Source of the DNA: Heptranchias perlo
Lineage: Eukaryota
Assembly (NCBI RefSeq): GCF_035084215.1
Contig: NC_090365.1
Location: 9,176,001-9,240,000, forward strand
Length of the DNA stretch: 64,000 bases
Reading direction: 5' to 3'
Made by a program: the position numbers and the translations under genes. Under the pieces are notes generated by a model. That model was given only the letters and a program-made list of their open reading frames with translations. It did no database searches and had not been told where the DNA came from. Positions within the stretch are counted from its first letter, which is position 1. Every line of letters begins with the position of its first letter. Shown here piece after piece: positions 3,584 to 30,375 of this stretch.

Positions 3584-4225
3584 CTACTTCAATTCCTTGA
3601 TTTTATCCTCGACCGATTCCCTGCTGTCGTCCAGGATCTCGGCCACCTTCTTCCCCATCTTGTAGAACTGGAAGGTGGGGATGTGGATGATGTCGCAGGC
3701 CTCCGCCGTGTCTTCCGAATCGTCCACGTTCACTTCGTAGAAAATCACCAGGTTGTGGAGCTGGGCGATCTCGCTCATAATTGGCTTCAAGTCCTGGCAC
3801 GTCTCGCACCAGTTGCCCGAGAAGAAGATGACCACCAGCCGTTCGCCCGCCTCTTTGATGAACTTGTCGAACTCGCTCATGCTGCTGATGCTTCTCAGCG
3901 GCACGCCGTCCCCGGGCAGCTCCTGCGGCGTCCCGCTCCCTCCCTGCGCCTTGTCCGGGGTCTTCGACTCCTTCGGCGGCTTGCCCTTTTCCTGCGGCGG
4001 CTCGGCGGCCCTGGCCCGGCTCGGCTCGGAGGCCCTGGCCCGGCTCGGCTCCGAGGCCTTGGCCCGGCCCGGCTCCGAGGCCTTGGCTTGCGACCGTCCG
4101 GCTTTCCCGTGGGAAGGCCCCACCTCGCCCGGCGCCTGGGACGGCGCGGCCTTGTCGGCCGTCGGCTGAGCGCTCTTTCCCTGCGCCTTCTTGGGCTTTC
4201 CCAGCGTACTTCCCGCCCCCGCCAT
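3584..4225 (-). CDS. Thioredoxin-like protein 1 of the cluster: low-complexity/repeat N-terminal extension plus a Trx domain with WCETC motif; single exon
   Basis: 213-aa ATG ORF. The C-terminal ~105 aa align to vertebrate TXN (LVVIFFSGNWCETC...EVNVDD...IPTFQFYK). GC-rich codons. AATAAA at 3568-3573 just after the stop. Confidence 0.9.
   Translation of the reverse strand: MAGAGSTLGKPKKAQGKSAQPTADKAAPSQAPGEVGPSHGKAGRSQAKASEPGRAKASEPSRARASEPSRARAAEPPQEKGKPPKESKTPDKAQGGSGTPQELPGDGVPLRSISSMSEFDKFIKEAGERLVVIFFSGNWCETCQDLKPIMSEIAQLHNLVIFYEVNVDDSEDTAEACDIIHIPTFQFYKMGKKVAEILDDSRESVEDKIKELK
3992..4087 (-). repeat. Four 24-bp coding repeats (AKASEPGR, AKASEPSR, ARASEPSR, ARAAEPPQ)
   Basis: Visible in both the DNA and the translation. 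Confidence 0.85.
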
Positions 4226-5060
4226 GTGCTCGGCCCCTCTCTGACACGTGGCTCCGAGGCCCTTCCGCCCCCTGCACCGTAGACACGCCCACTCATTGTG
4301 ACATCACCCCCCCTCAAGCCCCGCCCAGCCTGAAAAAAGGGGGCAGTTGAGCGCGCCGCCTCATTTATCCGCCAATCGGAATGAGCTGACAATTCAAACA
4401 GGCGCGCAATTAAAGACTATTTCCCATTAACAAGGTTTAATTTTCGCGCTGCCGCCGCTGAGAGCCAATCACGTTTTTTATTATAAAAAAGAAACAGGCG
4501 CGGCCACCTAATGGCCTTAGTGATTGGTTAATAATACTGTCCAATCAATGCCGAACCAGCTCTGACTGACAGGGGAATAGACCTATCATGACCCACCAAC
4601 GTAATCGGCCGCTTTTGATTGGACCATATTGGATGATGTTCAGCCAATAGGGGACGGAGGGCCGGTCCTCTCGGTGTGGGGGGTGTCGAGGTTGAACGGA
4701 TTGAGGCGAAGGGTCCCGGGCCGGTGTGACCCTGGCCTGGACGGAGCTGCCAAAGCTCGGGGAGGGTGTGTGACCGTTTTTATGTTGGACCGTGAGCGGG
4801 TGACGGGCGGGCAGCCAGCACCCGGCCATAGGGTCCGAGGCCCGCGGTCGCGCGCGCGCTCAACACCCTAACGGCAGCAGCGCGAGAGCGGGAATCAGCC
4901 CCGGCCGCCGGGAGCATGCGCAGTCCAGCCCGTTTCTCAAAGTGGGGGCGGGGCGAGATGGTGACGTGTGATTGGAACTCTCGGTTAGAGAACACGCCCT
5001 CTCTCTCCGTGACGTAATTTGATCTCCATGGTTACGGTATTAATACGGAAGAAGGTAAGA
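4226..5060. promoter_or_regulatory. CpG-island promoter upstream of Trx-like gene 1
   Basis: CRE-like TGACATCA at 4299-4306, GC boxes, at least six CCAAT/ATTGG boxes between 4372 and 4650, NRF1-like GCATGCGCA near 4914, and X-box-like ATCTCCATGGTTAC at 5022-5035. Confidence 0.7.
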
Positions 5061-5189
5061 GGGGAGAATGCAGTGGTGGAGCAGGCACCAGGGGAATCAG
5101 CATCACCCAGGTTGAAAAGAACTGGAGGGAGGATGAGGTAACTCAGGAAATGGGAATCCAGGAATTTCACCATGTTAATCCAAACAAAA

Positions 5190-6005
5190 TGGATTGGCAG
5201 ATGAAATTTAATGAAGTGTGAAGTGATGCATTTTGGAAGAAGATGCAATATAAACAAAATGGTACAATTTTAAAGGGGGTGCAGGAACAGAGAGACCTGG
5301 GGGTTCATATACACTAATCTTTCATGGTGGCAGAACAAGTTGATAAAGCTGTTAAAAAAGCATACAGGATCCTTGGCTTTATAAATAGAGGCATAGAGTA
5401 CAAAAACAAGGAAGTTATGGTAAACTACTATAGTGCCTTTAATTATAGTAATCTTTATAAATCATTGGTTAGACCTTAGCTAGAGTATTAGACACCACGC
5501 TTTAGGAAGGATGTGAAGACCTTAGAGAGGGTGCAGAGTAGATTTACCAGTATGATCCAGGGATGAGAGACTTCAGTTATGTGGAGAAGCTGGGATTGCT
5601 CTTCTTAAAGCAGAGAAGGCTAAGGGGAGATTTAATAGAGATATTCAAAATTAAGAGGGGTTTTGATAAGAGTGGATAGGGAGAAATTATTTCCACTGGC
5701 AGTCGGGTCGGTAACCAGAGAATACAGATTTAAAATAGTTGCCAAAAAAGCCAGGGGGGGAGCACAAGGAGATTTTTTTTTTACGCAGCAAGTTGTTATC
5801 TGAAATGCACTACCTGAAAGGAAGCAGATTCAATAGTAAATTTCAAAAGGGAAAAATTTGCAGGGCTATGGGGAAAGAGCAGGGGAGTGGGACTAATTGG
5901 ATAGCTCTTTCAAAGAGCAGGGGAGTGGGACTAATTGGATAGCTCTTTCAAAGAGCTGGCACAGGCACGATGGGCTGAATGGCCGCCATCTGTGCTGTAT
6001 GGTTC
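5190..6005 (+). mobile_element. CR1 LINE 3' fragment (RT C-terminus and 3' UTR), degenerate
   Basis: Homologous to the 3' part of the CR1 at 51830-52630. Contains a short internal duplication of gggagtgggactaattggatagctctttcaaagagc. Confidence 0.8.
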
Positions 6006-8699
6006 TGTGAAAATATGGGCTGTGCTAACTTGTAGAAAATACGGGTATTGAGTGGGGTTGCCAACTCTGGACGTATTCCAGAAGGTTTCATCACCTGTCT
6101 AACCGCCCCCACCTCCAAGCTTCCACCATTGGTCGCCTGACACGACAATCCTCGTAGCACATCACTTTCCCAAGCCAATTGGAAAGCCAAAAGACTTTGT
6201 CACCTGATTGGATGATTCTTGACTATCAGTCAAAGAGCCTGTTTTCCCCCTCTGATTTTTTTTTAATGCCTCTATTATTTTTCTACCTTGCTGAAGTGTC
6301 CAGGACGTGAATCTTTAATTGATGGAATCTCCAGGCCAATCCGGAAGGGTTGGCAACCCTAGCTGTGAGTATTCAGTCCTGTGATAGTGCCCTTGTTTGG
6401 TGTGTATTTGTAAATAGAGCACTCTGCAAGAGTTTAGCAGGTGGGTATGTATTGGCGGTATCTTTGGTGTAATGCCACTGACAGATCATTGTGTCATAAT
6501 ATGTAAAATAATAATGAATTACTGGCTTAATAGGAACAAGATTTGGCTCAGTGGTAGAATTCCCACCTCTAAGTCAGAAGGTGCAGGGTTCGAACCTCAC
6601 TCCAGACAATCCTGATGAGTGGAGACCGGAGCTCCGGTCCTGAATTCTGGGTTGACATCCAGCGGGATACTCGTGTCCGTTGGGTGTGGCAGAGGCTTTT
6701 AGGGAGGGAATTCTTGAGAGTGGGACTAGGTGGCTAAAGGCATGGCTGCCAATGGTGAGGCTAAAGGGGTCAATGTAAAGAGGCCAGTCAGGAATGAAGA
6801 GTGGGGGAAGAGGAGTTGTAGGGCTATAGGAGGTTACAGAGATAAAGAGGGGAGAAACCACGGAGGGATTTAAATACAAGGATGGAAATTTTAAATTTGA
6901 GGGTTTGGAGGGGTCAACGTGGGTTAGGGAGGATGGGTGAGCGGGATGGTGCCAGATATATGGGCAGCAGAGCTCTCCTTGCTACAAATAATCTCCTCCT
7001 AGTTCTTCATTAAGGGTTCTGTTGTAGTAGTCTTGCCTGCTCCTAATTGCAAGGGCCACTCTGCTTACTTCAAATGTATGGGTGAGAAGTTTCCACGAGC
7101 ATGCTCAGTGTTCAAAGCAAGTCAGTCTTGTCTTGTTAAGTGTGATTTCTTGTGGTTTCCAGCCCATTCTTTGGGTGTTTATGGTCCAGCTGCCTGATCT
7201 CTTTCTTCAGCTGAGATCACCCAACCTCTGCACAATCAAGGGACCAAACCTGCGACCAGGATAGCTCACCAGACTTCATCACAAGCATTGGGGAACCACG
7301 GCTGAGTGCAGCCCTGATTTTATCAGTCTTGCAGAATTGAGGCTGAGACCAGCCAAGCAAATTTATCCTGATTAGATTCTGATTACAGGCAGTAACGTCA
7401 ATAGTGGCTGGACACCTGGACTCAAAACTAATAGCTATCTCTAGACAGTTTTGTACATTGTTTGTTTTTATCTCCTTTTGCACAAATGACAAAGGAACTC
7501 TTTACAGTTAATCAAAGGCGATCCTTAAAACACATTACCCACTGTAACAAGCTGATACATGCCCAGGACCCGGTGATCAATTAGACACGCAGACTAGATC
7601 TTCAAACAAGTGAGATTTATTCACCCATGTTGTGTCTTTACTTGCAGTGATAAACGATGGTGATCAGTATTACTTTCCCACCTACCTCTTATCCCTCTCA
7701 GTTCCTTCCTCTCCGAACACCAACAGAACCATTAAGGTCAATGATTTCTTAAAGCTATACCGCCGTTTATTTACCTTCTTAAAGTTGTATCTCTATCTTG
7801 GATTCAGAGCTCTCAACATCCTATGGATTACATATCGTCCTTCTCTCACTCTGTTACTCTACCTAAAGTTATATAAATAAGATACAATACAAGAATTTTG
7901 TCTTCTTCCATTGTACACATGTCCCATCAGCCCACTCTGTTGTGCACCATCCATTCTAGGCTTTCACAACCTAATTGGAAACTCCCGCTCCCAGGATTAC
8001 TTGGGTTTGAATCTCTTTCCTGTTTTTAGGCTGTCGTTCCTAAAGAAAACAAAATTCTTTTTAAAATTAGAAAATGGTTATTTATATTATAAATGGAGAC
8101 CAGAATTGGGGATTTCCTCAAAGGCTCAGTCAGTGCACTGCTCGAGTGTGATACCGAGCAACATGGACCAGAAAGACCCCAGGTTCAGTCCCTGGTTCGT
8201 CTTGAGTTCACCTCATCCATTTGCTCGGAAGAAAATATCATAGAACATTTACAGCACTGAAGGAGGCCATTTGGCCCCTTGTGCCTTGCTAGCTCTTTAC
8301 TAGAGCAATCAAAAGCAAATCACGCTGCCCTGCTTGCTCCCTATAGCCATATTTTAATTATATGATGCAATGGTCTCCACCACAAGTACTATTTATAAAA
8401 CCCAAATGCTATTGCACTATTTATGGTTTTATCTACCTGCACTCTCACTCCCAAGGGAATATGTATCTGCACCCAAGGTGTTACAAGGCTGCAATTTAGT
8501 TCCATCACCTGCACAGTGCTAGATCTTACATTGGTGATCCGATCGTTGTCAGGCTAAGAGAATGGGCACACACAGGAGGCTGTGATCAACTGTCCCAAAG
8601 GTAAGGCTAGACTGGGGTAGCAATGTGAATGTAAGCAAACCATCAGAATTCAGTAGAGCTCCCTTCCTTCTTGCACCTGGACACAACAAATGTGTCTGC

Positions 8700-8967
8700 A
8701 CTGTGGCAGATTTTATGCCCAATAATTTAAGATGATTAGCAAAAGAACGTGGGGTGAGATGAGATTTTTTTTTCCTCAGTGTGTTGTTATGATCTGAAAG
8801 GGCAGTGGAAGTAGATTCACTACTAACTTTCAAAAGGGAACTGGATAAATACTTGATGAGGAAAAATTTGCAGGGCCATGAGGGGGTACGAATTGGATTG
8901 CTCTTTCAAAGAGCTGGCACAGGCTCGATGGGCCGAATGGCGGCCTCCTGTGCTGTAAGATGCTATG
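8700..8967 (+). mobile_element. CR1 LINE 3' end fragment
   Basis: Shares the terminal motif gctctttcaaagagctggcacaggc...ggccgaatgg...tgtgctgta. Confidence 0.7.
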
Positions 8968-9032
8968 CAATGCAACCATTAGCAGGACAGGTACTTTTTT
9001 TTTTATTATTCTTTGTCTGAAACACGTGAGAA

Positions 9033-9353
9033 TTACTTCAGCTGCATAATCAGACGGTCCAGCTTTTCCCTCTTGGTCCCGGAGAACTCCCCGATCTTCT
9101 CCTGGCACCTGTAGAAGTGAAATGTGGGCATGCAGGTGATGGCTGCAGCCCGGGCCAGCTCCTCCGATTCATCCACGTCCACCTCCACGAAGATGATGTC
9201 GCGGTGCTGGTCGGACCGCATCCGGAGGAAGGGCTTGATGTTGGAGCAATTACTGCACCATCGGGCCGCGAAGAAGACGACGATCAGGGTCTCCTCCTCT
9301 TCTCGCAGTAAGGTATCGAACTGCCTCCGGGTCCTGATGGGTCTCAGTACCAT
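9033..9353 (-). CDS. Thioredoxin-like protein 2 of the cluster, WCSNC motif; single exon
   Basis: Intact Trx fold (LIVVFFAARWCSNC...EVDVDE...CMPTFHFY...GEFSG). The strong-Kozak ATG at 9353 gives 106 aa; an upstream in-frame ATG at 9401 would give 122 aa. AATAAA at 9002-9007. Confidence 0.9.
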   Translation of the reverse strand: MVLRPIRTRRQFDTLLREEEETLIVVFFAARWCSNCSNIKPFLRMRSDQHRDIIFVEVDVDESEELARAAAITCMPTFHFYRCQEKIGEFSGTKREKLDRLIMQLK

Positions 9354-9401
9354 CGTGTCGCGTCTTCTCCCACCTTGCGGTCTGTTCAGGCCAGCCCGCA
9401 T

Positions 9402-9776
9402 GTCTCACTTGTAGCCCCTCCCCGATAGTGACGTTACCCCGGCGTCATGGTAGCCCCGCCCACGACTCGCAATCAGCAACATCTGGTCAACTGAAAGAAC
9501 CCAGATGTTGAGCTTCTCCGGCAATGGGCAGCGACTTACCCCCTGGTTTAAGGTGTGAATGAGCCCCGGGTCAGAACCTGGCGTAACACGACTTGAGATA
9601 CAACTCCCAGAGATTCATCAATGAGTGAAACTTGCTGGCGGGAAGGCGGGTGATTGACAGCAGTCGGGACAAATCAGGAGCCGCCCTGTTCTGATTGGCT
9701 CAATGTTACCAGTTGACAGCCCAATGGCAAAGCGCAGATGCGCTTCTTGGTTGTCAGGCTGCGTTTGATTGGCAGG
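9402..9776 (-). promoter_or_regulatory. Promoter of Trx-like gene 2
   Basis: CRE-like TGACGTTA at 9429-9436, GC box near 9453-9461, ZNF143-like tacaactcccag near 9599-9610, and ATTGG boxes at 9694 and 9768. Confidence 0.6.
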
Positions 9777-9989
9777 ATGTGGAGATGCCGGTGATGGACA
9801 GGGGTTGACAATTGTAAACAATTTTACAACACCAAGTTATAGTCCAGCAATTTTATTTTAAATTCACAAGCTTTCGGAGGCTTCCCCCTTCACATCGTTC
9901 ACCTGACGAAGGGGGAAGCCTCCGAAAGCTTGTGAATTTAAAATAAAATTGCTGGACTATAACTTGGTGTTGTAAAATTGTTTACAATT
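9777..9989. mobile_element. Short palindromic Penelope-like element with hammerhead motif
   Basis: Perfect 82-bp inverted repeat (9810-9891 / 9908-9989). Flanking direct repeat TTTGATTGGCAGG (9764-9776 / 9988-10000). Terminus gatgtggagatgccggtgatggac is shared with the GIY-YIG-bearing copies. Confidence 0.85.
9898..9936 (+). ncRNA. Minimal type I hammerhead ribozyme motif (Penelope pLTR type)
   Basis: ttcac-CTGACGA-stem II-GAAA-gctt-gtgaa. Both core boxes are present, stem I is ttcac/gtgaa, and stem III is the palindrome AGCT. Confidence 0.6.
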
Positions 9990-11929
9990 TGATTGGCAGG
10001 GAATTGGGGATTCCTGCATTTTAGGGCGTCATGTGGCAGTGCCCATTGGCGAGTCAAAGTTTGGCCCTGCAGCCACTTGCAACCTTAGTACAGGGCAAAC
10101 AGGAAATTGGCATCTCAGGACGTCAGGGTGTTCAAGAAGAATCTAAAGTTAAAATCAGGAGCACTCGTTAAATTCTATTAATGAATATTTTAAGCTGTGC
10201 AACAGCTTTACAGCAGTGATCTGCAGAAGTTTCAGATATGCCCACATTTACATGTTTAATGGTGTCCACAATGCAGACCTGGATGGGGTCACACGGTAGA
10301 TAAATTCTCCGCCAATACAAAGAATATTTGGAAATGCGCAGAAGACGTTAGCAGGTGTAAAGAGAAAAGACGGGATAATGTTTTCGGTGCGGGGTCCTCG
10401 GGTCGGGACTGGGGAAAAAAATGCTCCTTTTTATAGAGCTGAACGGAACAAGGGTGGGGGTGGGAGAGCAGAAAAAGGTATCAGGAAGGCTGACCCGAGT
10501 CGCAAATAGACTGTGTTTACTGGTCTGCAAACGGGTGTTTTGAAGAGCAAAAGAGAGGTGAAAACTGGTGGATGATATCGGATCATCTCAATTAATCAAA
10601 GAAAATTCAATAAAACAAGAGGGTGTGAGTTAGGGGTGAAATGCATGAGAGAGATGCACAGAGGGGGAAAAAAAATCCCTCCCAAAATGGAGACATATAA
10701 AGTAGAAGGAGATTGGAAGAACAAGAAAGAAAATGGGGGAATTAAAAAAAAAACGGATATGTAACAGACCCGTCAGTACCCGAATGAGAGAAGTCACGCC
10801 AACTGTGTTCTGTTAAAAGGGTCCAACTAAAAAGTCAACTTTCCTCCCCTCCCCAGAGGCCAGTGGGCCCACCGTGTTTACCCAGCACACTGTGCTTCTG
10901 AGAAAATGGGTTAGCTCAGGTCACTGTTCAAACCAGTGGGCTCCAGAGTGCCCAAGAGAGAAGGGAATTGGAAAAATATTTGAAGGGGATTAAAATTGCA
11001 GGGCTATGGGGAAAGAGCAGGTGAGTGGGTCTAATTGGATAGCTCGTTCAAAGAGCTGGCACAGGCACTTGGGCTGAATGGCCTCCTTCTGTGCTGTAGG
11101 AGTCTATGATTCTATTCTTGAAGCTTGCATTGAGTTTTTTTTAAAAATAATTTTTGGGATGTGGGCAAGGCTGGCATTTATTGCAGTTGCCCTTTGAAGG
11201 TGGTGGTGATGCAACTGAGTCGCTTGCTAGGCCACTTAAGAGGGCAGTTAAAGAGTTAACCACATCAGTGTGAGACTGGAGTCACATATAGGCCAGACCA
11301 GGTAAGGACAGCAGGTTTCCTTCCCTAAAGGACATTACAACAATCCGACAGCTTCACGGTCACTTTTACAGACACCGTTTTTTGTTATTTCCAGAATTAT
11401 TCTCAAACTGAATTAAAATTATCAAACTGCCACGGTGGGATTTAAGATCACATTCTCTGGATTATTAGTCCAGGTTTCTGGTTACTACTTCAGTAACATA
11501 ACCACTACACTGCCATACTCATTACTAGTTACAATAGTGTAAGAGGCCAAAGGTAGCAAGAGGTCAGAGGGTGAAGTTGAAGTAACACAGGAAGTCCTAA
11601 TCTCACTTGCGGACAGAACTGAGGTATTAAGCAAAGGTCATCCAACCTGCATTTGGTCTCTTCACGAGGAGTCATTTCAGTATCCTAGATTTGAGGAAGT
11701 ACATGTAAATTGCAGTCTTGCTCACAAGGAGTGTTTTGAGACCCGAGACAACGGGGTGGGGAAGGGTGAATGAACAGATGTTGCATCTGCTGTGCTTGCA
11801 TGGGAAAGTGCCACTCGAAGTCATGGTGGTGGAAGAATAAACCAGGGAAGAAGGAACTGTCCCTCCAAAGAAGGGAGGGGATGATACGCTTGGTGGTGGG
11901 ATTATGTTGTAGATAACAGATAAAGAACA

Positions 11930-12445
11930 ACAACTTGAATTTATAAAGCGCCTTTAACATAGGAATATGTCCCACGGCTTTTTAGGAGCATAATGAGACA
12001 AAGATTAACACCGAGCCGAAGGAGATATTGGGAGGGGTAACAAAACTTGTTCAAAAGGGAGGGTTTTAAGGAGTGTCTTAGGGGAGAGAGGTGGAGATGC
12101 AAGGAATTCGAGAGCATGTGGCCTAGATGGCTGAAGGCACGGCCACCAATGGTGGGGCGAAGGAACTGGGGGTGTGTAAGAGGCCAGAATTGGAGGAGCA
12201 CGGAGATCTTGGACGGTTATAGGAGGGGGAGGTTACAGAGCTAGAGAGGGGTGAGGCCATGGAGGGATTGAACACAAGAAGTATTGGTGTATCGGGAGCC
12301 AATGTAGATGAATGAACACGGGGTGCTAGGTAAGCGGGACTTGTGGGATAGGATACGGGCAGCAGAGTTTTAGATGAGCTCATGTTATGGAGGGTGGAAG
12401 ATGGCAGGCCGGCCAGGAAATCAATGGAATAGTCAAGTTTGGAGG
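11930..12445 (-). mobile_element. L2-like LINE 3' fragment
   Basis: Degenerate ORF (RPTIGGRAFS...) and 3' tail shared with the other copies. Confidence 0.65.
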
Positions 12446-12914
12446 TAACAAAACTCTTCTAATCTATCGGGTTTTCTGCCATTTCCTCTCCCAATTTTCA
12501 AAACAATTATTAGTCCTTATGATTTTCATGGAAGGGAGAGTGGAGTTACAGAATTCAGATCAAAATTTAGCTACAAGCTTTAATTTTAGTCAGTATGGAT
12601 TTAATCAGTAATACATTGGAAAGGAACAAATAAGAGTAAGACAATAATAAAAACCCGTAAAATGTTTCATGAAGTATAATGTGAAAAAGTCCTCAGTACC
12701 TCTTCCCCCCCCCCAAACCCCCCACCCCCACCCCAGAAATCTGGCACACCAGTCTGTACATGATGCAGGCGATTGATGCTCCCCATCGATATGGTCTACT
12801 CCCTGTGCCAAATTGGGTTAAGTGCTGTATGTGATGTCTCTGGGTCTATGGGGTTTAAGCGTATTTTTGAATCCATGGGCGGGGGATTCAGATTTAACCT
12901 GAAGGAGGCTAATG

Positions 12915-13360: not shown

Positions 13361-14574
13361 AATGCACTGGAGTCAAATTTCCTCATTGTCATATGGGTTT
13401 GCAATTCGCCCGTGGGATAAGGGAGCCACTTTTAGCAGTGCCACCACTGTGCTCATAGATATCGCTTTCCCAAGAAACAAACTACAGAAGCACCAAAAGT
13501 AAATGAAAGCAGCTTTCCTCATTTACCAGGTTATCCCATTGCTTTCTCTTTAATGATATGATTCACACTATGCTTGCCCTCTCGTCTCCATCCTGCCTGT
13601 TATCCTACATTGTCCCTCCTGCTGTCCCTCAGACCCAGTACAGTAGCTCCATTGGATCAGTTATCCGCTGAAGATGCTACCTTATGATGGGCCATAGTTC
13701 CACCCGAACCCTCCAGTGATTTGCCCAAGTAGTCATTCATTTCTGAGCCTAAGTAGCGAGCGTCAGCGGGTTGATTGACCGAAGGGGACAACACGACAAA
13801 GTCTCATTCCTGTTCACACTGGGCTGGGCATTTACTAACTGAGCAAGCAGATTGTCTGAATTGATATTGTCATTAAAAGCAAGCTGACGTTTACTGTCGT
13901 GCTCCACATATTGATTTGCAGATTTGGGCAAATCCAACATCTGTGACTAAACTAACCTTCAGCTGGCAAGGAAGTCAACTAAGATTGATGAAAATATTTT
14001 AGACAATGTCCAACAAATACAAATAAAACGATTGGATGTTTCTGATGCTAATGATCACACAGGTTAGATCTCACACACACTATCACACAGAGACTTCGAA
14101 ACAGGTCATTGGAGGAGAAGGGAAGTACAGGGCTGGTTTGTGATGGGGTTAATCTCCATCTTGAGAGGCGATCCTTTGCCACTGGGTTTTCAAACTGGAG
14201 TCTGTCGATCCTAAGCGGGGTCTGTCAGGAAATATTACAATTAATGTCAGTCATAATTGCATAACACTCAGCACCACTGACCATATTGGGGAGGGAACCC
14301 ATTTATCCTGAGTGATATTCTACTTACCCAGTCACAGTTTGTGTGCAAGGCGTTTGTCTTTTAAGTGACGTCACACCCAGAACCAGAGGATCGGGACAGT
14401 TGCTGCTGGGTGTGCTTCATTTGCGTTTCTGGTTTGTGATGTACATGCCCCCCTCTCCCGTGCAGTTCTGTATTGTTGGAGGTGCGTTGCTTTGGACGAT
14501 TCGTTAAACTGAGTGTCTTTCTACCTGTTCCACTGCAGCGTGTCCTCCATCAAACAATAACAGTTTTAACCTTT

Positions 14575-20032: not shown

Positions 20033-21153
20033 CCATGATGTGGAGATACCGGTGATGGACTGGGGTGGACAAATGTAAGGAATTTTACAACACCAGGTTA
20101 TAGTCCAACAGTTTTATTTGAAAATCACAAGCTTTCGGAGCTTTCGTCTTTCATCAGGTGTGTGAAGGTTTCCATCAAAGCACCGCATATATAGTCACAG
20201 CACAATGCCTGGTGATTACAGATAATCTTTCCAACTGCCTGTTATCACACCTCTGCATGGATGGTGTTCAGACAGGGGAACATTACACCTAAGACCATTG
20301 AATACGCAAGCGGTCAGATTACAAAGACAGAGAGAGAGAGAGAGAGACAAAGAATGGCCAGTTGTATTAAAAACAGATAACTTATTTCCCCCCCCCCCAG
20401 TGGGATTACATGTAGCGTGACATGAACCCAAGATCCCGGTTGAGACCGTCCTCATGGGTGCGGAACTTGGCTATCAATTTCTGCTCGATGATTTTGCGTT
20501 GTCGTGTGTCTCGAAGGCCGCCTTGGAGAACGCTTACCCGAAGATCGGAGGCTGAGTGTCCTTGACTGCTGAAGTGCTCCCCGACTGGGAGACAACGGAT
20601 GAACGGGCACCGCACAACAATCGCCAGACAGGAGGGTTCCCTACCAGTCGGGCAACACTTCAGCAGTCAAGGACACTCAGCCTCCGATCTTTGGGTAAGC
20701 GTTCTCCAAGGCGGCCTTCGAGACACACGACAACGCAAAATCATCGAGCAGAAATTGATAGCCAAGTTCCGCACCCATGAGGACGGCCTCAACCGGGATC
20801 TTGGGTTCATGTCACGCTACATGTAACCCCACCGGGGGAGGGGGGAAATAAGTTATCTGTTTTTAATACAACTGGCCATTCTTTGTCTCTCTCTCTCTGT
20901 CTTTGTAATCTGACCGCTTGCGTATTCAGTGGTCTTAGGTGTAATGTTCCCCTGTCTGAACACCATCCATGCAGAGGTGTGATAACAGGCAGTTGGAAAG
21001 ATTATCTGTAATCACCAGGCATTGTTCTGTGACTATATATGCGGTGCTTTTGATGGAAACCTTCACACACCTGACGAAGGACGAAAGCTCCGAAAGCTTG
21101 TGATTTTCAAATAAAACTGTTGGACTATAACCTGGTGTTGTAAGATTCCTTAC
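20033..21153. mobile_element. Penelope-like element in inverted (palindromic) arrangement
   Basis: Inverted arms of about 515 bp (about 20074-20591 / 20641-21154). Both encode a GIY-YIG endonuclease C-terminus (LPVG.HFS...EQKLI..F.T...GLN.D) and a hammerhead motif. 14-bp direct repeat AGTGGTTCAAGAAG at 20019-20032 and 21154-21167. Confidence 0.88.
21068..21102 (+). ncRNA. Minimal hammerhead ribozyme motif
   Basis: cac-CTGACGA-agga...ctcc-GAAA-gctt-gtg. A mirror copy lies on the minus strand at about 20126-20160. Confidence 0.55.
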
Positions 21154-21411: not shown

Positions 21412-21729
21412 TCACTGCAGCTCGTCCAGTAGGTGCTCCAGCTTCTCCCTCTTGGTCCCCGAAAACTCTCCCATCTTGGTCTCCCGCTTGTAGAAGTGAA
21501 AGGTTGGCATGCAGGTGATGCCGGAGGACCGGGCCAGCGGCTCCGCGTCGTCCACGTCCACCTCCACGAAGACGATGTTGTTGAGCTGCTCGGAGAGGTT
21601 GTAGAAGTGCGGTCGGATCATCCGGCAGTTGCCGCACCATTCGGCCGAGAACATGATGACCACCAGCTTCTCCGTCTGGCTCAACAAGGTCTCGAACTGC
21701 TTGGCATCCCCCACGTGTTTCACCACCAT
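21412..21729 (-). CDS. Thioredoxin-like protein 3 of the cluster, WCGNC motif; single exon
   Basis: The strong-Kozak ATG at 21729 gives 105 aa, the length of canonical TXN. Sequence KLVVIMFSAEWCGNCRMIRP...EVDVDD...CMPTFHFYK...GEFSG. Upstream in-frame ATGs fall in promoter-like sequence. Confidence 0.92.
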   Translation of the reverse strand: MVVKHVGDAKQFETLLSQTEKLVVIMFSAEWCGNCRMIRPHFYNLSEQLNNIVFVEVDVDDAEPLARSSGITCMPTFHFYKRETKMGEFSGTKREKLEHLLDELQ

Positions 21730-21975
21730 GCTGCTTCCGGCTCCGTGCCCCGCCCACTGGGCCTCAGCCCCGCCCCCAATCCCCATAGTGACGAGTGTCG
21801 ACGTCAACCTCCTCCGCTCCCATTGGCTAATTCTCATTGGCCATTCCTGATCACACGATTGCTACTTTTTTTATGAATGAATGGGTGGCAAGCCCTCAGC
21901 TCCATTGGCCGGAATGTGGATGATTGACGGTGCAAGGAGCCTATCAGAAAGGCGTCCCTGTGCCCACCAATTGGT
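21730..21975 (-). promoter_or_regulatory. Promoter of Trx-like gene 3
   Basis: GC boxes near 21748-21777, TGACG at 21789, CGACGTCA at 21799-21806, and ATTGG at 21822 and 21836. Confidence 0.6.
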
Positions 21976-22189
21976 ATTTTTAAATTTCAAAATATATTTT
22001 ATTTCAAAAAAATTAAAAATACCACAATTCCAAAGCAATACAATGTGGATCGTAAACAATAAGATTCCAACATTACAATTTAAAACATAGTGTATATCAT
22101 ATATCTGTGCTGTATCTTTTCTATAGTTCTATATATCCATTTTTTCAGACAGCAAGTGCTGGTAATGGTTCTGCTGTTGCCATTTACAG

Positions 22190-22485
22190 CTACTCTAAAC
22201 GGATCTTTTGTTTCTTAACCTGTCCCATTACCACCCTTGTTTGCTTTGCACCATTATCCCTTTTGTCATTTAATCACCCTTTTGTCCTTTCCCCCCACCC
22301 TTCCCTGGCTCTGAACTTGCTTAAAAACTTTAACTCTTTAATATCTTCCAGTTCTGACAAAAGGTCTTCGACCTGAAACGTTAACTCTGTTTCTTTCTCC
22401 ACAGACGCACCCTCACTTGCTGAGCTTTTCCAGCATTTTCTGTTTTTATTTCAGATTTCCAGCATCCGCAGTATTTTGCTTTTGA
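22190..22485 (+). mobile_element. Second Penelope-like family fragment with degenerate hammerhead
   Basis: ctgacaaaaggtcttcgacctgaaacgttaac...tccagcattttctg. Related copies at about 26615-26720 and 40475-40645. Confidence 0.55.
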
Positions 22486-22499
22486 CATATCTTATAATG

Positions 22500-22722
22500 C
22501 ACGCAGTAAAATACAAGGTGGGATGGCCTTACACGGTGGCCTTTCCCCATACAGCCTTTGCGTAGGTCACACCCTGCCTCAGTGCATCCTGCAGCACGTA
22601 CTCCTGGACCTCGGAGTGTGCCAGTCGGCAACACTCGGTCGTGGACAGCTCCTTCAGCTGGAAGACCAGCAGGTTTCGGGCGGACCAAAGGGCCTCCTTC
22701 ACTGAGTTGATGGTCTTCCAGT
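22500..22722 (-). mobile_element. L1/Tx1-like LINE ORF2 C-terminal fragment
   Basis: WKTINSVKEALWSARNLLVFQ...ECCRLAHS; homologous to 24900-25105. Confidence 0.65.
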
Positions 22723-22809
22723 TGATCATACTGTTTGCCACCTCCGCATCCTATTCAATACTGAGCTGAGTTTCGGACTGATAGATAGAGGAATCCACGC
22801 CCTCCATAA

Positions 22810-23376
22810 GGGAAACGTGGCAGCCAATTTGCGCACAGCAAGGTCGCATAAGGCACAGCAGGGACTGGAGTGTATAGTTGACATCGGCAACAACATTATG
22901 ATTTAATTTGATAAGTTTCCTTTCTCTTTGGTATGATTTGGGTATTTATTGTTTGTGCCCCTCTAAAAAGGGGGCACTTTTGTTAGATTTCTATTATTTT
23001 GAGTTGATGACACTGAGACAACCCAGTGTCTCCCAACGGGTTTATTAAATAGAGGCAGGGTCCCAAAAACAGCAGTGAGATAATGACCAGACAATCTGGG
23101 GTTTTGTTCAGTTGTTGGTTGAGGGATAAATATTGGCCAGGACACCAGGGACAACTCCCCTGCTCTTCTTCGAATAGCACCGTGGGATCTTTTACGTTCA
23201 CCTGAGAGGGCAGACGGGGCATCGGTTTAACGTCTCATCCGAAAGACGGCACCTCCGACAATGCAGCACTCCCTCAGTACTGCACTGGAGTGTCCGCCTG
23301 GATTTTGTGCTCAAGTCTCTGGAGTGGAACTTGAACCCATGACCTTCTGACTCGGGCAAGAATGCTACCCACTGAG
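22810..23376 (-). mobile_element. Deu-domain tRNA SINE, interrupted
   Basis: Reverse-complement homology to the SINE at 14575. Confidence 0.65.
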
Positions 23377-23869
23377 GCATGGCCGGCAAAGTGGAAGGTG
23401 GAAGTATTGCTGCAGTCCTTATCAAATACAATATGCTACGTTTACATAACCGTGTTTGGAGTTTTGTCTGGGAAGAAGTTGAAGACCCCATTACCGAGCA
23501 CTTATGTGGTCTTCACATGGTGTATAAGTAGTAGAAGAGGCAGCTGGGATGGCTAGTCCTCTCTTGATGTGGGATGTGCCTGGCCTCTGTTCAGCCCCTC
23601 CCCACTCGGAAGGGCTGAGATCTGGAACTCAGCATGTCAGTGTGATCCAGGCCACACCAATCCATGATACCCTGATATATAGGCTCATTTTAATGTACTG
23701 TATTGTAGTGGGAATTTATAAAAAAACATTTTCATTGCAACATGGTTTATTTAACAATCATTTTTTTTTGTCAATGGTTTTGAAGAAAAAAAGACAGATT
23801 GGGTCAGACTATATTTTTGTTTCCTGAAAATGCACATTAACCACCCTCCAGTGCCTCACCCTAGCTCTC

Positions 23870-24255
23870 TTGCCTCTGAGTTTGCAGGTCGTGGGTTCAA
23901 GCTGCATTCCACAGACTTGAGCAAATAATCTAGGGCTGACCGTTCCGTGCAGTACTGAGGGGGTGCTGTCTTTTGGATAAGACATTAAACCGAGGCCCCG
24001 TCTGCCCTCTCAGGTGGACGTAAAAGATCCCATGGTAATATTTGAAGAAAAGCGGCATTCTCTCCGGTGTCCTGGCCAATATTTATCCCTGAACCAACAT
24101 CATAAGACAGATTACCTGGTCATTGCTCTTTGTGGGAACTTGCTGTGCGCAAATTGGCTGCTCTGTTTCCTTACATTACAACAGTGACCACACTTCAAAA
24201 ATACCTCAGTGGACTGTGAAGTGCTTTGAGACATCCTGAGGATGTGAAAGGCATT
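23870..24255 (+). mobile_element. Deu-domain tRNA SINE
   Basis: Homology to the SINE at 14575. Confidence 0.7.
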
Positions 24256-24601
24256 TTCTAGCATGAGCCATTGGAAGACAGTAAGAGTGGAGAATACTGG
24301 TTGATATTTCCTCCCCCTGTAGCCCAGGGATACTGAGACAAGTTGCAGAAACCCAGCTGTTGCCTTGGCTGAAATCAGCTAGCTAAAGGCCCTTTCACAT
24401 TATGGCCCAGTGCAGTCAAGCTGATGGGAAAGTGACACCAACATGACTTCCCTACACTGATCTCTCATTTTTACATTTGTTGCCAGTCTGCCTCAGGCTA
24501 ATTGTGGAGGAAGATTCAACAGCAAACTGGGTGAGGAATGAATAAATTGGGTTTGCACTGTCACCTGTATAAGGTAGGTCAATGGATTTGCACATTGATT
24601 G

Positions 24602-25110
24602 GTTTTTTTTCAAAAAATATACTTTATTCATAAAATTTGCAGCAAAACATCCAATACAGTTGTCATATCACATTCCAAACGTACACAATACAGATTATAC
24701 AATTTGCAGGTTACATCAAGTACAGTTCAATGAACACATTGTACATAATTACAGTTCATGACACTCTGGGATGTCTCATTGCATTATACTCAATACAGAT
24801 TATTGATTACAGATTCATTACAGTTACATTACAGCAATTTGAATTTTACATTCTGCCCGGGGGGGTTTTTCCTTGATAGCAGCCCCTCGGTTTACAATGG
24901 CGGGAAGGCTCTAAACGGTTGCCTTTCCCCACAGAGCCTTTGCGGCGGCTGCACCCAGCCTCAGTGCGTCCCTGAGCACATATTCCTGGACCTTGGAATG
25001 TGCCAGTCTGCAACACTCGGTCGAGGACAGCTCCGTGCACTGGAAGACCAGCAGGTTTCGGGCAGCAAAGGGCGTCTTTCACCGAGTTAATGGTCTTCCA
25101 GCAGCAGTTA
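24602..25110 (-). mobile_element. L1/Tx1-like LINE 3' end with poly(A) remnant
   Basis: ORF2 C-terminus, 3' UTR, AATAAA and A tail on the minus strand. The same 3' UTR occurs on the plus strand at about 49295-49590. Confidence 0.7.
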
Positions 25111-25644
25111 CATCGATTGTTTGAGACCCATGTCTTAGTGAGCACTGCCTTAACCGAGTACTGACCAGGGTCAAACCTGGGATCTTCCTCATTCCCTTCA
25201 TGACCCTCCTTCTTCTGCCACATTCCTGGAAGCCTTCTCCACTTTGCCGGATTGTCTATGCTTCCCTCCCCTCTGCTGTGCTCTAACCATTCACACATAC
25301 TCTGGACCCATCTTTTGTTTCTCCAATTTCTCTCATTTTGTCTGGCACTATAATCACTTCTGTCATTTAATCATCTCCTGCCCTCCACCCAATCATAGAC
25401 CTCTCCTTTTTTTTGCTTTTTCTGCCCCCCTTTTCTCCTTGGCTCGACACCTTGTGGAAATGCATGAAGGGATACTTGACCATATTAACTCTTTATTAAC
25501 TCACATAATAGGTTAGCTACAGCACACAGAGAAGCACAATTGTGTAATTACGTTTAAGCCTTGGTATGTTGATAATTAAGTTAGCTGAGCAGGTGTTCAG
25601 AACCTCTGGCCCCTCTAGCAGATAAGGGTATTGCTGACTACAAT

Positions 25645-26193
25645 GAGGGTTCCCTCCCAGTCAGGGAACACTTTAGCAGTCAAGGACATTCAGCCACCGA
25701 TCTTCGGGTAAGCGTTCTCCAAGGCGGCCTTCAAGACACACGACAACGCAAAATCGTCGAGCAGAAATTGATAGCCAAGTTCCGCACCCATGAGGACGGC
25801 CTCAACCGGGATCTTGGGTTCATGTCACGCTACACGTAACCCCACCAGCAAGGGGAAAAAAAAGTTATCTGTTTTTAATATTCTCTCTCTCTCTCTGCCA
25901 TTTGTGTCTCTTTCTCTCTGTCTGTCTAATTTGACACAATGTATATTCAGTGTACTGGGACGTACTGTTCTCCGTGGCTAATCTGTTTGAACACCAATGA
26001 CACCTTTTGATTGGTGTGATGGTGTCCCAGCCTAATATGATATGCGATTTGAGAACCTTTCACTCATTCACCTGACGAAGGGGATAATCTCCGAAAGCTT
26101 GTGATTTTAAAATAAATTTGTTGGACTATAACCTGGTGTTGTAAGATTCCTTACATTTGTCCACCCCAGTCCATCACCGGCATCTCCACATCA
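25645..26193 (+). mobile_element. 5'-truncated Penelope-like element with GIY-YIG C-terminus and hammerhead motif (about 26066-26104)
   Basis: Homologous to 20635-21153. Contains attcac-CTGACGA-...-GAAA-gctt-gtga and the complete terminus. Confidence 0.82.
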
Positions 26194-26844
26194 TTACAAA
26201 AATATAATGAGAATACAGTTTCTTGAAAGGCCATGTGGCCTTGAGACTGACTTCAGTCCAACTGATAACCAGGACAGAAATGTGGGGAGGATGGGAATGC
26301 TCAGGCCAGGTGCCAAAGTAATAAAGGGCTATGGACATTCGGCGGGTCAGGCTCACTACTTGATTGACCAACTACCTGAGCCAATAAAGAATGTATGTGT
26401 ACGCCCATATTCTGTGACAGGTGGGCGTTGTTACTGAGCTGTATAAACGTGAGCTGTTTCTTGAACTCAGCGAAGATGTCTTGAGGTGCTCTTCCACTTG
26501 TACAAGTAAAATAATAAATTCTCACTTGTTCTACTTGGTTTTGAGTGTTAATGCATTGTATAGAATAAGTAATATTAAGTTTCGACAACCTGCTTATAAG
26601 CTGTTCATCCTCCACTTCTGATGAAAGGCCATCGACCTGAAACGTTAACCCTACCTCCCTTTCTCCACGGAGCCTGCCTGTCATGTTAAATGTTTCCAGC
26701 ATTTTCTGTTTTTTATTTTACCTTCTTCGTGTCTCTGGTTCTAATCCACTGAGCAGGGCATTTACCCAACTGGGCATCACGTTTACTCACTGAGTTACTG
26801 GGGTCTCAGACTAAAATATATTTAAGAGGTCTTTTTACACATCA

Positions 26845-27178
26845 GGAACTCGCCAAGGCTTCTTCGAAACACCCCACAAACCTGCGACCTCTACCACCTA
26901 GAAGGACAAGGGCAGCAGGTTCATGGGAACACCATCACCTCCAAGTTCCCCTCCGAATCACACACTATCCTGACTTGGACATGTATCACCATTCCTTCAT
27001 TGTCACTGGATCAAAATCCTGGGACTCCCTATCTGACAGCATTGTGGAAGCACCTTCACCACACGGACTGCAGTGGTTCAAGAAGGAGGCCCATCACCGC
27101 CTCTCAAGGGACAACTAGAGATGGGCAATAAATGCCGCCCTTGCCAGCGATGCCCGTATCCCAAGAATTGATTTTTTA
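26845..27178 (+). mobile_element. LINE 3' fragment, same family as 1-392
   Basis: Direct homology. Confidence 0.65.
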
Positions 27179-27719
27179 AAAAGCACAGTGGTGTAATCAG
27201 CCCAGTGAGTTTTGTTACTGGGTCTGTGGTGAGAATGAAACTGTTTAACACAAATAACCACAGGTTTGATGTTTGTTACGCTGAATGTGCAATAGCGATT
27301 CCCAACTTAGGACAATAAAGATAAGGGCACCTATTGCAGGGAAACAGGGCACTTGTGCACAAACAAGCAGTTTGCAGTCACAAGTGTAAAGGGAGTAAAG
27401 GTTAGGCCATGCAGTTTGCTGAGACTCAGGTACAGAAAGGGTATTAATTATCAGAGCTGCTGATTTCTAATTTTCAATTGTGCAATTCGTCCCTAAAGCA
27501 CTGGTAAATAATGTAATAAAAATAAAATTTATCCTATGCAGTCATTACAAATCAATGATTCTGATCAGAGGGCTTGGAACCCTCAATGCTTGGCGAAACA
27601 TTATATAATTGACACAAAAATGCTACTGGTAAAAGCATTAATAAGCATCTATTTACATAATAGAGAGATCACCAGAAAACGAATGAATACAATGTGAGCT
27701 CCCCACATTCTACACCCTT

Positions 27720-28607
27720 CTATACAGCACCTTTTCAAGTTTCAGAGAAATTCACAGCAGCCAATTAGTGTACAATCAACATATAACTGAATGAGCAGTT
27801 AATCAGTTTTTGGGGGAATGTTGGCCAGGGCTCTTGGAGAATTCCCTATCTCTTCAAATAGTGTCACGGCATCTTTAAAATCCACCTGTACAGGCAGACG
27901 GAGCCCCAGTTTAACGTGTTATCTGAAGGACGGCTCCTCTAACAATGCAGCACCTCTTCAGTATTTCACTGAATTGTCCCCTTATGGTACGTGCTGAAGT
28001 CCCGGAGTGGATTTGAACCCGCTGACTCAGGGGGAAGAATGCTACCAACTGAGCCAAACTGACAGTTATACACCACAGATATAAACATTGCTGTACTGTG
28101 GCAGTCTGCAGGATCTGAATCTATTTATCCTGGGCCACCTCCACGATTTACTCAATGTGTGGTATTGGTTCAATTGTAGCATTTTCGCTTCTGAGTTAAA
28201 TTGTGGGTTCATGTCCCACTCCAGGAGTTTGAGCATATAATCTAAGTGGACACTCCCAGTGCAGTACTGAGGGAGTGCTGCACGGTCGGAGGTGCCGTCT
28301 TTCAGATGAGACGTTAAACCGAGCTCCCGTCTGGACGTGAAAGAGCCCATGGCACTATCTCGAAGAGGAGCAGGGGAGTTCTCCCTGGTGTCCTGGCCAA
28401 CATTTATCCCTCAACCAACATCACTAAAACAGATTTTATAGTTATTTATCTCATTGCTGTTTGTGGGAGCTTGCTGTGTGCAAATTGGCTGCCCCGTTTC
28501 CTACATTACAACAGTGACTGCACTTCAAAAAGAACTTCATTGGCTTTAAAGCACTTTGGGACATCCTGAGGTCATGAAAGGCACTATATAAATGCAAGTC
28601 TTTCTTT
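27720..28607. mobile_element. Two head-to-head Deu-domain SINEs (minus about 27720-28057, plus about 28170-28607)
   Basis: Homology to the SINE at 14575 in both orientations. Confidence 0.7.
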
Positions 28608-30021
28608 TATAGCAGTGGAACTGACACAACACCTTGTGCTTTGGAGTCACCTTGTGTAATGTCACCCCTTACAGGTACAAGATGCACAGTGAGTGCTCTG
28701 TTGCTGCCTGAAAGAACCCTAACCGTGCTGCTTTGAGAAACTCCAAATGGAGCACACACCCCTCCCAACATGGGAGGGAAAATCACTGCCATGCACCCTT
28801 GGTAGCTGACTGAAGAGTCAAATTGTGAGATGCCTGGGGTGTAGGTCCACCTTCTTGTCTGCAGGAGACATTGCCCTGTTGGCAAGGAGTAATGGAGAAT
28901 TGATAGCCTTACAGTAAACAGCTTTACAACAGGGTGTGGTGCAAATCCTTCAGCCCAGCATACCAATCAACTTTCTCCTTACCTCTGGCTATGGCACCCT
29001 CCCATCTCCTGAGATCAGTGACACTTGCTGGGGTATGGCTTCATAACACCCCTCAGTCTTCATACGTGAACCTAGACAGTGAGGGTCGGCAAATCTCACC
29101 TCCATTTTATAAACAATCCCTTTTAAATTCTTAAACACTCAGTTGGTCCAGCTCCATTTCAACTGTTGATCTGAGATGTAGACTAACATGGAGTCTCAAG
29201 CAGAAGAGGTGCATGAAAGCTGCCGGCTTTGTTGTAAAAACCCAAATAGCTAATGCCCTTCATTGAAGGGATCCTGCCACCCTGGCTCGTGACCATTCCC
29301 ACTTTACGTGATCAACTCAATGCCCTCTGACGTGGCCTTGGAAGGGATGGGCAATATATGCAATATTGCCAGTCTGACCCACATCCTGTGAGCAAATTAA
29401 TGGGAAAAAATAATCAACTCCTGGATCATACATCCATAAAGCCAATGGATGCTGCTACTCCAGTTTCCTGAGCCAATCAGCACCGTTTAGTGCCCTATCT
29501 CCACCTGGTGATCATCCTCGTGTATGAGATCAGTCAGTAAGTATAGACAGGCTGTTCCGCCACAAGCGGGCACCACATCCTAGTCTGACCCTGTCCTCAC
29601 CCCATCGTCCATACATTCAGTGGGAGGGGGGCGTCACTGGAGAGGGATCGGGAGCCGGAACGTTGGGTTTGTTTGCCCATTCCCTAGTGTGCCACCCTGA
29701 CCGTGATCAGCGCGGGCGATACAGAATGTGGATGGAGCCTGGTACCCCCCTCTGTCCCTTTCCGCATCGGCTGGCGCATTGAGAGGATTGGATTCCGCAC
29801 TTATTCGCCATTGGAGACGATGTCTTTCCAGGAGTTTGCCAGCCGGAGCTGCAGGTAGTGCACTGGGAGTGCCAGCCTAGATTTTATGCTCAAGGAGTGG
29901 GACTTGGACCCACAACCTTCTGACTCAGAGGCCAGACTGCTACCCCACTGAGCCAAGACTGACACCTTGACACAATAATAAGCAGCCACAAACGCCGGGC
30001 ATCAGTAGAAATCGGCTGGGT

Positions 30022-30375
30022 TTAATTTATAGGGGGCTGGCACGCCCCGCCCCCCTGTAGCTTCTGGATCATTCGCTCCAGGAGGCACCGGTTGGGCCCC
30101 TTGAACTGGAAGACCTTGGAGCCGGTCTTGTAGAACTGGAAGGTGGGGAACCACTGGATGCAGCAGCGCTGCACCACGTCCTGGGCCACGTTCACGTCCA
30201 CCTCGTAGAAGGCCACGGCCGGGTAGCGCTCGGCGAACTGGTCGAAGTACAGCTGGATCATCTGGCAGAACTCGCACCAGTTGGCGGAGAAGAGCAGGAC
30301 GACCAGTTGCTCGTCGCTGTCCCGCAGCGCCGCCTCGTACTCCGCCACGCAGCTGATGGTGGTCACCGCCCCCAT
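30022..30375 (-). CDS. Thioredoxin-like protein 4 of the cluster, WCEFC motif, cysteine-rich; single exon
   Basis: The first ATG (aggATGg) at 30375 gives 117 aa; the ORF-track start at 30429 is a GTG. Sequence QLVVLLFSANWCEFC...EVDVN...FPTFQFYK.G.KV..F.G.N. ATTAAA overlaps the stop codon. Confidence 0.9.
   Translation of the reverse strand: MGAVTTISCVAEYEAALRDSDEQLVVLLFSANWCEFCQMIQLYFDQFAERYPAVAFYEVDVNVAQDVVQRCCIQWFPTFQFYKTGSKVFQFKGPNRCLLERMIQKLQGGGACQPPIN

Follow-up and report, generated by a model that had tools for sequence, protein, structure and literature searches.

Within a 64,000-nucleotide stretch of Heptranchias perlo DNA (NCBI RefSeq assembly GCF_035084215.1, contig NC_090365.1, positions 9,176,001 to 9,240,000 of the forward strand; hereafter the window, whose own numbering is used throughout) lies a tandem cluster of four thioredoxin genes, here called paralogues A, B, C and D, whose products lack both Asp26, the buried catalytic acid of thioredoxin, and the proline of the CXXC active-site motif.

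Four single-exon thioredoxin genes without Asp26

A six-frame scan of the window reveals four thioredoxin open reading frames (ORFs) with a WCxxC motif, all of them uninterrupted, located on the minus strand and contained in a single exon. Paralogue A (3584..4225) encodes 213 residues, comprising a Lys/Ala/Pro-rich N-terminal extension of ~108 residues, predicted to be disordered, and a thioredoxin domain, and paralogues B (9033..9353), C (21412..21729) and D (30022..30375) encode proteins of 106, 105 and 117 residues, respectively, C being the nearest of the four to canonical thioredoxin (Trx). In the six-frame scan the frames of A, B, C and D run over 3587-4225, 9036-9353, 21415-21729 and 30025-30375. 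A six-frame profile search of the window finds exactly four thioredoxin domains and no further or decayed copy, the PF00085 scores of A, B, C and D being 62.9, 70.1, 88.1 and 65.4 bits against a gathering cut-off of 23.5. The G+C content at third codon positions (GC3) of the four genes is 0.83-0.95 and their upstream observed/expected CpG ratio 0.64-1.08, versus 0.45 for the window; AATAAA lies within 120 bases of the stop codon in A, B and C, and none occurs within 400 bases in D. A named H. perlo protein, 'thioredoxin-like isoform X2' (P0011), is identical to C across the aligned part, and its alternative last coding exon (14149..14221, minus strand) is joined from a GT donor at the stop codon of C to an AG acceptor at 14222-14223; this annotated GT-AG splicing suggests transcript support for C. 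Isoform X2 begins at Met26 itself (21652-21654, minus strand), ends in the distant exon and is missing the first strand and helix.

An initial annotation of the locus had proposed that Asp26 is replaced by Phe, Phe, Met and Leu in the four paralogues and that the CXXC proline is lost, and both observations are borne out. Reading along the minus strand, A carries the motif VVIFFSGNWCETC, with TTC (Phe) as codon 26 (3824-3826) and its CXXC at 3797-3808; B carries IVVFFAARWCSNC, with TTC (Phe) at 9273-9275 and CXXC at 9246-9257; C carries VVIMFSAEWCGNC, with ATG (Met) at 21652-21654 and CXXC at 21625-21636; and D carries VVLLFSANWCEFC, with CTC (Leu) at 30292-30294 and CXXC at 30265-30276, so that all four motifs are present in the window. 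When C is aligned with human thioredoxin (PDB 1auc/1ert, 4puf), the only gap falls close to the N-terminus, leaving the strand and the active site ungapped, and Met stands opposite D26. The AlphaFold model of C (predicted local distance difference test, pLDDT, 92.5) matches human Trx 4oo4 with a Z score of 22.0 and a root-mean-square deviation (rmsd) of 0.7 Å over 104 aligned residues, and the domain of the A model (pLDDT 93-97, versus ~45-56 for residues 1-110) lies within 0.7-1.0 Å of human Trx; both models keep the Trx fold, with the CXXC opening helix 2 and a loop that bears the presumed cis-Pro.

The conservation of these features was assessed over 32 family rows (9 A, 8 B, 7 C and 8 D), made up of the four window proteins and 28 cluster representatives, without P0003 and P0011, which duplicate C or are isoforms of it, and over a canonical set of 12 named vertebrate thioredoxins, six of them chondrichthyan; the family rows are related to one another, so their counts are not independent. 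Position 26 is hydrophobic in all 32 (Phe in every A and B row, Met in six C rows and Phe in one, Leu in every D row), Pro34 is missing from all 32, and WCGPC and Asp26 each occur in 0/32, as opposed to D26 and CGPC in 12/12 canonical proteins. Trp31, Cys32, Cys35 and cis-Pro75 are invariant in the family (32/32), and the CXXC dipeptide is fixed by group, being ET in A, xN in B and C and EF in D. The cluster belongs within the thioredoxin family, yet is without two defining features of canonical Trx1. A one-residue misalignment at position 26 is ruled out by the gap-free alignment with human Trx, the 32-row alignment and the structure superposition, and a chance or assembly effect by the hydrophobic residue found in every family row.

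Nor does an acid appear to stand in for Asp26 in these rows. Residue 38 is I, L, V or F in 32/32 rows and in none an acid, and hence the buried Glu six residues after Cys32 described for CcmG, ResA and StoA (PMC3961690) is found in 0/32; Glu56 is kept in 31/32 rows but is ancestral, occurring in 8/12 canonical rows; and the new acids, Glu33 in A and D (17/17 rows) and Glu30 in C (6/7 rows), should be surface-exposed.

Age and origin of the cluster

Homologue searches retrieved shark and ray orthologues of each paralogue; Callorhinchus yielded A, B and a C-like form, and no orthologue of D was found for it. On a single catshark contig, A, B and C are the consecutive models scyTo_0016843-45, and a 19.56-Mb contig is given for every one of the four Pristis rows, whereas canonical shark TXN rows lie on contigs of 101-229 Mb. 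The A and B/C lineages, at least, are older than the chimaera-elasmobranch split, and the change at Asp26 is ancient and conserved. The C-terminal halves of Callorhinchus P0012 (C-like) and P0014 (B) are identical, pointing to gene conversion or a chimeric gene model.

Shark-ray identity within orthogroups amounts to 83% for A, 89% for B, 85% for C and 64-77% for D, compared with 71-80% for canonical TXN, which argues that the genes are under constraint. It is exceedingly improbable that they are decaying retro-pseudogenes whose substitution reflects neutral drift. Intronless copies and long stem branches (~0.5-1.15 substitutions per site in three trees, see below) are what such decay might leave behind, but the reading frames of sharks, rays and chimaera are open, conservation inside the groups that equals or exceeds that of canonical TXN already contradicts drift, and the high GC3, CpG-rich promoters, AATAAA signals after A, B and C and annotated spliced isoform speak for working genes.

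Among 102 retrieved homologues, none of the 68 non-family proteins combines an intact CXXC with F, M, L, I or V as residue 26; a later search added six more matches, two named TXNDC2 and four unnamed. The best 150 matches of a representative search include five family rows, together with two other single-domain matches that have V or I at position 26 and keep the CXXC proline. In the 145 non-family matches of that set, Asp or Glu occupies the site in only 171 of 342 regular-expression motif matches (Met in 56), so that loss of Asp26 alone is not unprecedented across the Trx fold. No orthologue outside cartilaginous fish was seen in searches limited by word, length or rank, which leaves absence there unproven, and an ESM Atlas search for look-alikes returned generic thioredoxin clusters only.

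Maximum-likelihood (ML) trees were built from 70 rows, and from 35 rows and 29 rows with positions 26, 33 and 34 masked. A, D and B+C each form a strongly supported clade on a long stem. (Heterodontus P0048, a second, divergent thioredoxin of canonical type with D26 and CGPC, stands apart from the other shark TXN rows in the 70-row and 35-row trees.) The initial annotation had invoked a shared ancestral loss of Asp26, a claim that fares unevenly: A, B, C and D form a single clade in none of the three ML trees and in 0/1000 bootstrap trees (35 rows), which weighs against it; the approximately unbiased (AU) test, on the other hand, does not reject the one-clade tree (p=0.072, 29 rows), and we regard a common loss as likely rather than demonstrated by the phylogeny.

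Separate losses of Asp26 in A, D and B+C, which would be independent of any particular mechanism, are possible, although we consider them rather doubtful. The free ML trees (35 and 29 rows) require three changes, the one-clade tree has a log-likelihood 6.7 worse than the free tree, and the 35-row tree, which lacks mammalian TXN, joins B+C to TXNDC2 at 98/91. This join is gone once mammalian TXN rows are included, TXNDC2 then lying with mammalian TXN (70- and 29-row trees); 102 columns and long stems underlie the comparison, the AU test leaves one origin standing, and the two-base change from Asp to Phe would have had to occur twice at one locus. Hints of common origin come from the tandem arrangement, shared strand and single exons of the genes and from their codons 26 (TTC, TTC, ATG and CTC), and Q10, E20 and E63 are common to A, B and C and occur in at most 1/12 canonical rows; the Callorhinchus C-like row has Phe at position 26. 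Taking tandem position, single exons, promoter layout, the Phe of A, B and the chimaera C-like row and Q10/E20/E63 together, one retro-insertion followed by one loss from Asp to Phe is probably the simpler history. TXN is a multi-exon gene elsewhere, from which we infer retroposition: a cytosolic TXN copy would have been retroposed and then expanded in tandem into four genes, Asp26 having most likely been lost once, to Phe, with later change to Met in elasmobranch C and to Leu in D.

Chemistry predicted for the four paralogues

The initial annotation also read the loss of Asp26 as pointing away from ordinary reductase activity, which overstates what this residue can tell. In a reconstructed bacterial thioredoxin, D26I is reported to lower insulin reduction by 72%, leaving 28%, and to raise the melting temperature by 10 °C, and A39K to rescue D26I almost fully both in vitro and in yeast (PMC9601870). 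Human TXNL1, with Lys at position 26, is described as coupled to thioredoxin reductase 1 (TrxR1) with comparable turnover and a Km at least 10-fold higher (PMC10570131), and NrdH, Cp9 and BC3987 as reductases without the acid, in a source that gives an acid in ~92% of typical Trxs and presents the Asp26 mechanism as debated (PMC3720550). Asp26 has been proposed to deprotonate Cys35 (PMC9601870, PMC3720550); in human Trx1 its pKa is given as 8.1/9.9, beside E56, D58 and D60 (PMC3961690). No paper on the kinetics of D26A, D26N or D26L came up in the search made for them. Taken together, the substitution predicts enzymes that would be slower and more stable, not dead, and it does not point to an oxidase.

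The paralogues also differ from one another at other positions. All four are 38-52% identical to shark TXN, C being 50-52% identical to it and 46-48% to human Trx, and at 43 sites conserved in canonical thioredoxins the group majority has changed at 19 in A, 13 in B, 12 in C and 17 in D. B (F26, WCSNC, K39) and C (M26, WCGNC, R39) both retain P40, E56, D58, D60, C73, M74, cis-P75, G91 and a basic residue 94 (R94), and both have E63; C has R36, and B is without a basic residue there. P40, D60 and G91 are all present in B and C (15/15 rows), whereas G91 is found in 0/9 A rows and P40 and D60 in 0/8 D rows. A (F26, WCETC) keeps K39, P40 and cis-P75 and shows D58N, C73H, G91D and A92D, the last two in 9/9 rows, with a net charge of -3 to -9. 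D (L26, WCEFC, cis-P75) shows P40L, D60N, C73W, M74F and A92P in the window, and L40, N/G60, W73, F74, P92 and C95 in 8/8 rows; F34, W73, F74 and P92, each invariant (8/8), line a groove that is, to judge from these residues, aromatic and rebuilt. As an additional feature of D, the invariant Cys95 has been gained and Cys69 kept (8/8 rows), with 4-6 cysteines per domain and, possibly, an extra disulfide or modification site. Lys or Arg is found at position 39 in 27/32 family rows (A 9/9, B 8/8, C 6/7, D 4/8; Q39 in the window copy of D) versus 6/12 canonical rows.

In human Trx1, D60N, D58,60,61N and K94E are reported to leave TrxR1 efficiencies of 57, 25 and 19% (PMC8189816), and E. coli G92D, the equivalent of G91D in A, to disrupt the contact with partners there, the matching G92/93D change abolishing the binding of a protein partner to bacterial Trx (bioRxiv 2024.03.19.585677). 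Signs of lost ordinary function stronger than that of Asp26 itself differ between the paralogues, being G91D/A92D in A and P40L, D60N/G, C73W, M74F and A92P in D, and it is unlikely that the four paralogues are housekeeping equivalents of Trx1.

With moderate confidence, we favor slow, partner-restricted dithiol-disulfide exchange, in which B and C would be fed by thioredoxin reductase (TrxR) and A and D specialized for one partner. The hydrophobic residue 26 would fill the polar cavity behind Cys35; Cys32 would attack the disulfide of the partner and Cys35 resolve the mixed disulfide, more slowly and with few partners. [quoted passage not shown] Several points weigh against this interpretation: the rescue by Lys39 was obtained with insulin as the substrate of a reconstructed bacterial Trx that carries CGPC, and may not extend to CxNC, CETC or CEFC (PMC9601870); K39 is common in canonical vertebrate Trx and need not be compensatory, the window copy of D having Q39; and G92 mutants of bacterial Trx are still said to perform redox chemistry (bioRxiv 2024.03.19.585677).

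The altered surfaces of A and D, with the acidic pair and net negative charge of the former and the aromatic groove and lost P40 and D60 of the latter, would also suit substrate traps or redox-idle adaptors holding a persistent mixed disulfide or a stable structural CXXC disulfide. This alternative, most plausible for these two paralogues, which have changed at more of the canonical-conserved sites than B and C, and in keeping with the proposed role of Asp26 in deprotonating Cys35 (PMC9601870, PMC3720550), is nonetheless unlikely: Cys35 and Trp31 are present in 32/32 rows, when loss of Cys35 would be the simplest trap, D26I still retains 28% turnover (PMC9601870), and the mechanism of Asp26 is itself under debate (PMC3720550).

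An iron-sulfur (Fe-S) protein had been another candidate of the initial annotation, and it draws support in B and C from the loss of Pro34 and the retained Cys73, and none from Asp26. Cys73 is present in 15/15 B and C rows, from which Cys69 has been lost. Human Trx1 is reported to bind an Fe-S cluster through C32 and C73 (preprint 10.1101/2020.08.04.235721), CSYC in human TRX1, with the cis-Pro intact, to allow a cluster, window B having CSNC, and IsTRP (NCFAC) and plant TRXo to be natural precedents (PMC6210436). Binding through Cys32 and Cys73 is accordingly plausible, as far as residue patterns can indicate, in B and C; that these are mainly [2Fe-2S]-bridged dimers in which the cluster serves as an off-switch for redox activity or as a sensor of iron or oxidants is, by our estimate, as improbable as the trap. 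The cis-Pro75 reported to disfavor metal binding (PMC6210436) is present in 32/32 rows, Cys73 is missing from A and D and is ancestral in vertebrate Trx rather than a gain, the cited passages draw no link from Asp26 to cluster binding, and binding in vitro would not prove a main function.

The oxidase or isomerase also suggested initially is the weakest of these candidates, and we judge it distinctly improbable that the paralogues are such enzymes or a relay passing peroxidase disulfides to, for example, cysteine-rich proteins of sperm. The dipeptide of a CXXC motif tunes its redox potential, and Pro34 is gone; TXNDC5/ERp46, moreover, has Met or Lys at this site (Met in its first domain), so that a domain of the protein disulfide isomerase (PDI) family can do without the acid. 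The PDI/DsbA-type motif, also seen in TXNDC5, is CxHC, and His34 and an acid at position 26 each occur in 0/32 family rows. In addition, DsbA, BdbD and PDI are reported to keep a buried Glu here, and the reductases CcmG, ResA and StoA to lack the strand acid (PMC3961690); removal of Asp26 raises the pKa of Cys32 in E. coli Trx, the opposite of what an oxidase needs (PMC9601870, PMC3961690), Glu33 of A and D should further disfavor the thiolate, and the N-termini look, by inspection, unlike signal peptides. The need for reduction in dispersing dogfish sperm chromatin (PMC2110730) counts in favor of a sperm relay, and it also enters the germ-cell analogy drawn below.

Possible setting, related systems and neighboring features

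A cAMP response element (CRE)-like octamer with one mismatch lies upstream of the ATG of A (4299..4306, 74-81 bases away, near GC boxes), B (9429..9436, 76-83 bases) and C (21799..21806, 70-77 bases, with GC and CCAAT boxes), and a perfect CRE palindrome upstream of that of D (30434..30441, 59-66 bases, bordering a CpG-rich stretch). The shuffle probabilities of such an octamer within 150 bases of the ATG are 0.027, 0.077, 0.034 and 0.035 for A, B, C and D, and across the window the octamers are not enriched (21 matches versus 16.9 expected). CREs are not testis-specific. CREM-tau is reported to drive mouse spermatid genes (PMC3091680), and TXNDC2 and TXNDC8 are described as mammalian spermatid proteins (PMC4492044); by analogy with these two, male germ cells may be the likely setting. 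The following observations count against such a setting: the motif was picked only after inspection, and CRE sites are common in CpG-island promoters. The three scyTo cluster identifiers are absent from the catshark sperm proteome supplement, an uninformative result given that the control identifier is absent too, and the one thioredoxin-domain protein mentioned in the text of that source, scyTo_0001399, is not a cluster gene (PMC11083954).

A bolder proposal is that this cluster, older than the split between sharks and chimaeras, has abandoned the reductase chemistry of Asp26 and the GP dipeptide for new roles: B and C would be redox or iron sensors bridged by [2Fe-2S] through Cys32/Cys73, and A and D long-lived mixed-disulfide traps or adaptors, which in spermatids would govern the disulfide cross-linking of shark sperm, in convergence with the mammalian Sptrx proteins but by different chemistry. 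As a whole it strikes us as rather unlikely. The likeness to TXNDC2/Sptrx-1 and TXNDC8/Sptrx-3 lies in their being extra copies derived from TXN, TXNDC2 being listed as a chimeric retrocopy (PMC2584115); TXNDC2 resembles A in its repetitive N-terminal extension ahead of the Trx domain, and the entries resembling A and D in the ESM Atlas include a TXNDC8 cluster. TXNDC2-like rows differ in keeping the CXXC proline and, nearly all, D26; A groups with TXNDC2 in 0/1000 bootstrap trees (35 rows), and the only TXNDC8-like sequence in the trees, one half-protein, has no resolved placement (70 rows). The likeness is probably convergent, not orthologous.

The probable parent, TXN/Trx1, shares with the paralogues its fold, length, W31, C32, C35, E56 and cis-P75, and differs in having D26, the GP dipeptide and several coding exons, A and D having lost further groove residues; canonical shark TXN persists on the 101-229 Mb contigs. 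TXNL1/TRP32, whose cytosolic Trx domain likewise has no acid as residue 26 and is nevertheless coupled to TrxR1 (PMC10570131), differs in its CGPC, its PITH domain and its charged rather than hydrophobic residue. The pairing of a hydrophobic residue 26 with a basic residue 39 makes A, B and C natural counterparts of the engineered D26I and D26I/A39K thioredoxins of Romero et al. 2022 (PMC9601870), which are built on a bacterial ancestral scaffold and keep CGPC. The Fe-S thioredoxins (IsTRP, plant TRXo, human Trx1 through C32/C73 and its CSYC variant) resemble the family in a CXXC without Pro34 and B and C in Cys73, which A and D lack.

Family proteins are annotated as 'thioredoxin-like' or similar only, and no description of the cluster surfaced in a literature search covering few subscription journals. 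Each feature has a precedent; their conserved combination in a cluster derived from vertebrate Trx1 appears undescribed. Given that the general-base role of Asp26 is still debated, these long-conserved Trx1 derivatives, with four CXXC dipeptides and no Asp26, offer a native eukaryotic scaffold in which to ask whether Lys39 or the dipeptide can replace the acid, and whether loss of Pro34 together with Cys73 gives an Fe-S protein. If testis-specific, they would show that a spermatid thioredoxin system arose independently in another lineage whose sperm are stabilized by disulfides.

The extension of A holds a 24-bp tandem repeat of 3.8 copies (3998..4087, minus strand) that codes for 8-residue repeats not seen in the orthologues inspected. 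The first ten residues of A (4196-4225, minus strand) are nearly invariant in 7 elasmobranch rows, although both sequence and length differ over the remainder of the extension, and they may serve in targeting or binding. Beyond D, a CpG-rich stretch at ~30400-31700 may be a head-to-head promoter common to this paralogue and to a SERTA-domain gene (35865-36698, plus strand) that has one coding exon behind a splice acceptor. Two ORFs at 46351-47904 (plus strand), with a zinc knuckle and an aspartic-protease-like motif, are the remnant of a long terminal repeat (LTR) retroelement, and fragmentary reverse transcriptase and endonuclease frames of long interspersed nuclear element (LINE) type, which we take to be CR1/L2-like, lie on both strands at 50700-56600. 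Short near-duplicate frames of one repeat element occur on opposite strands at 20216-20826 and 25585-25839, and a further near-duplicate pair at 45265-45735 and 49807-50277.

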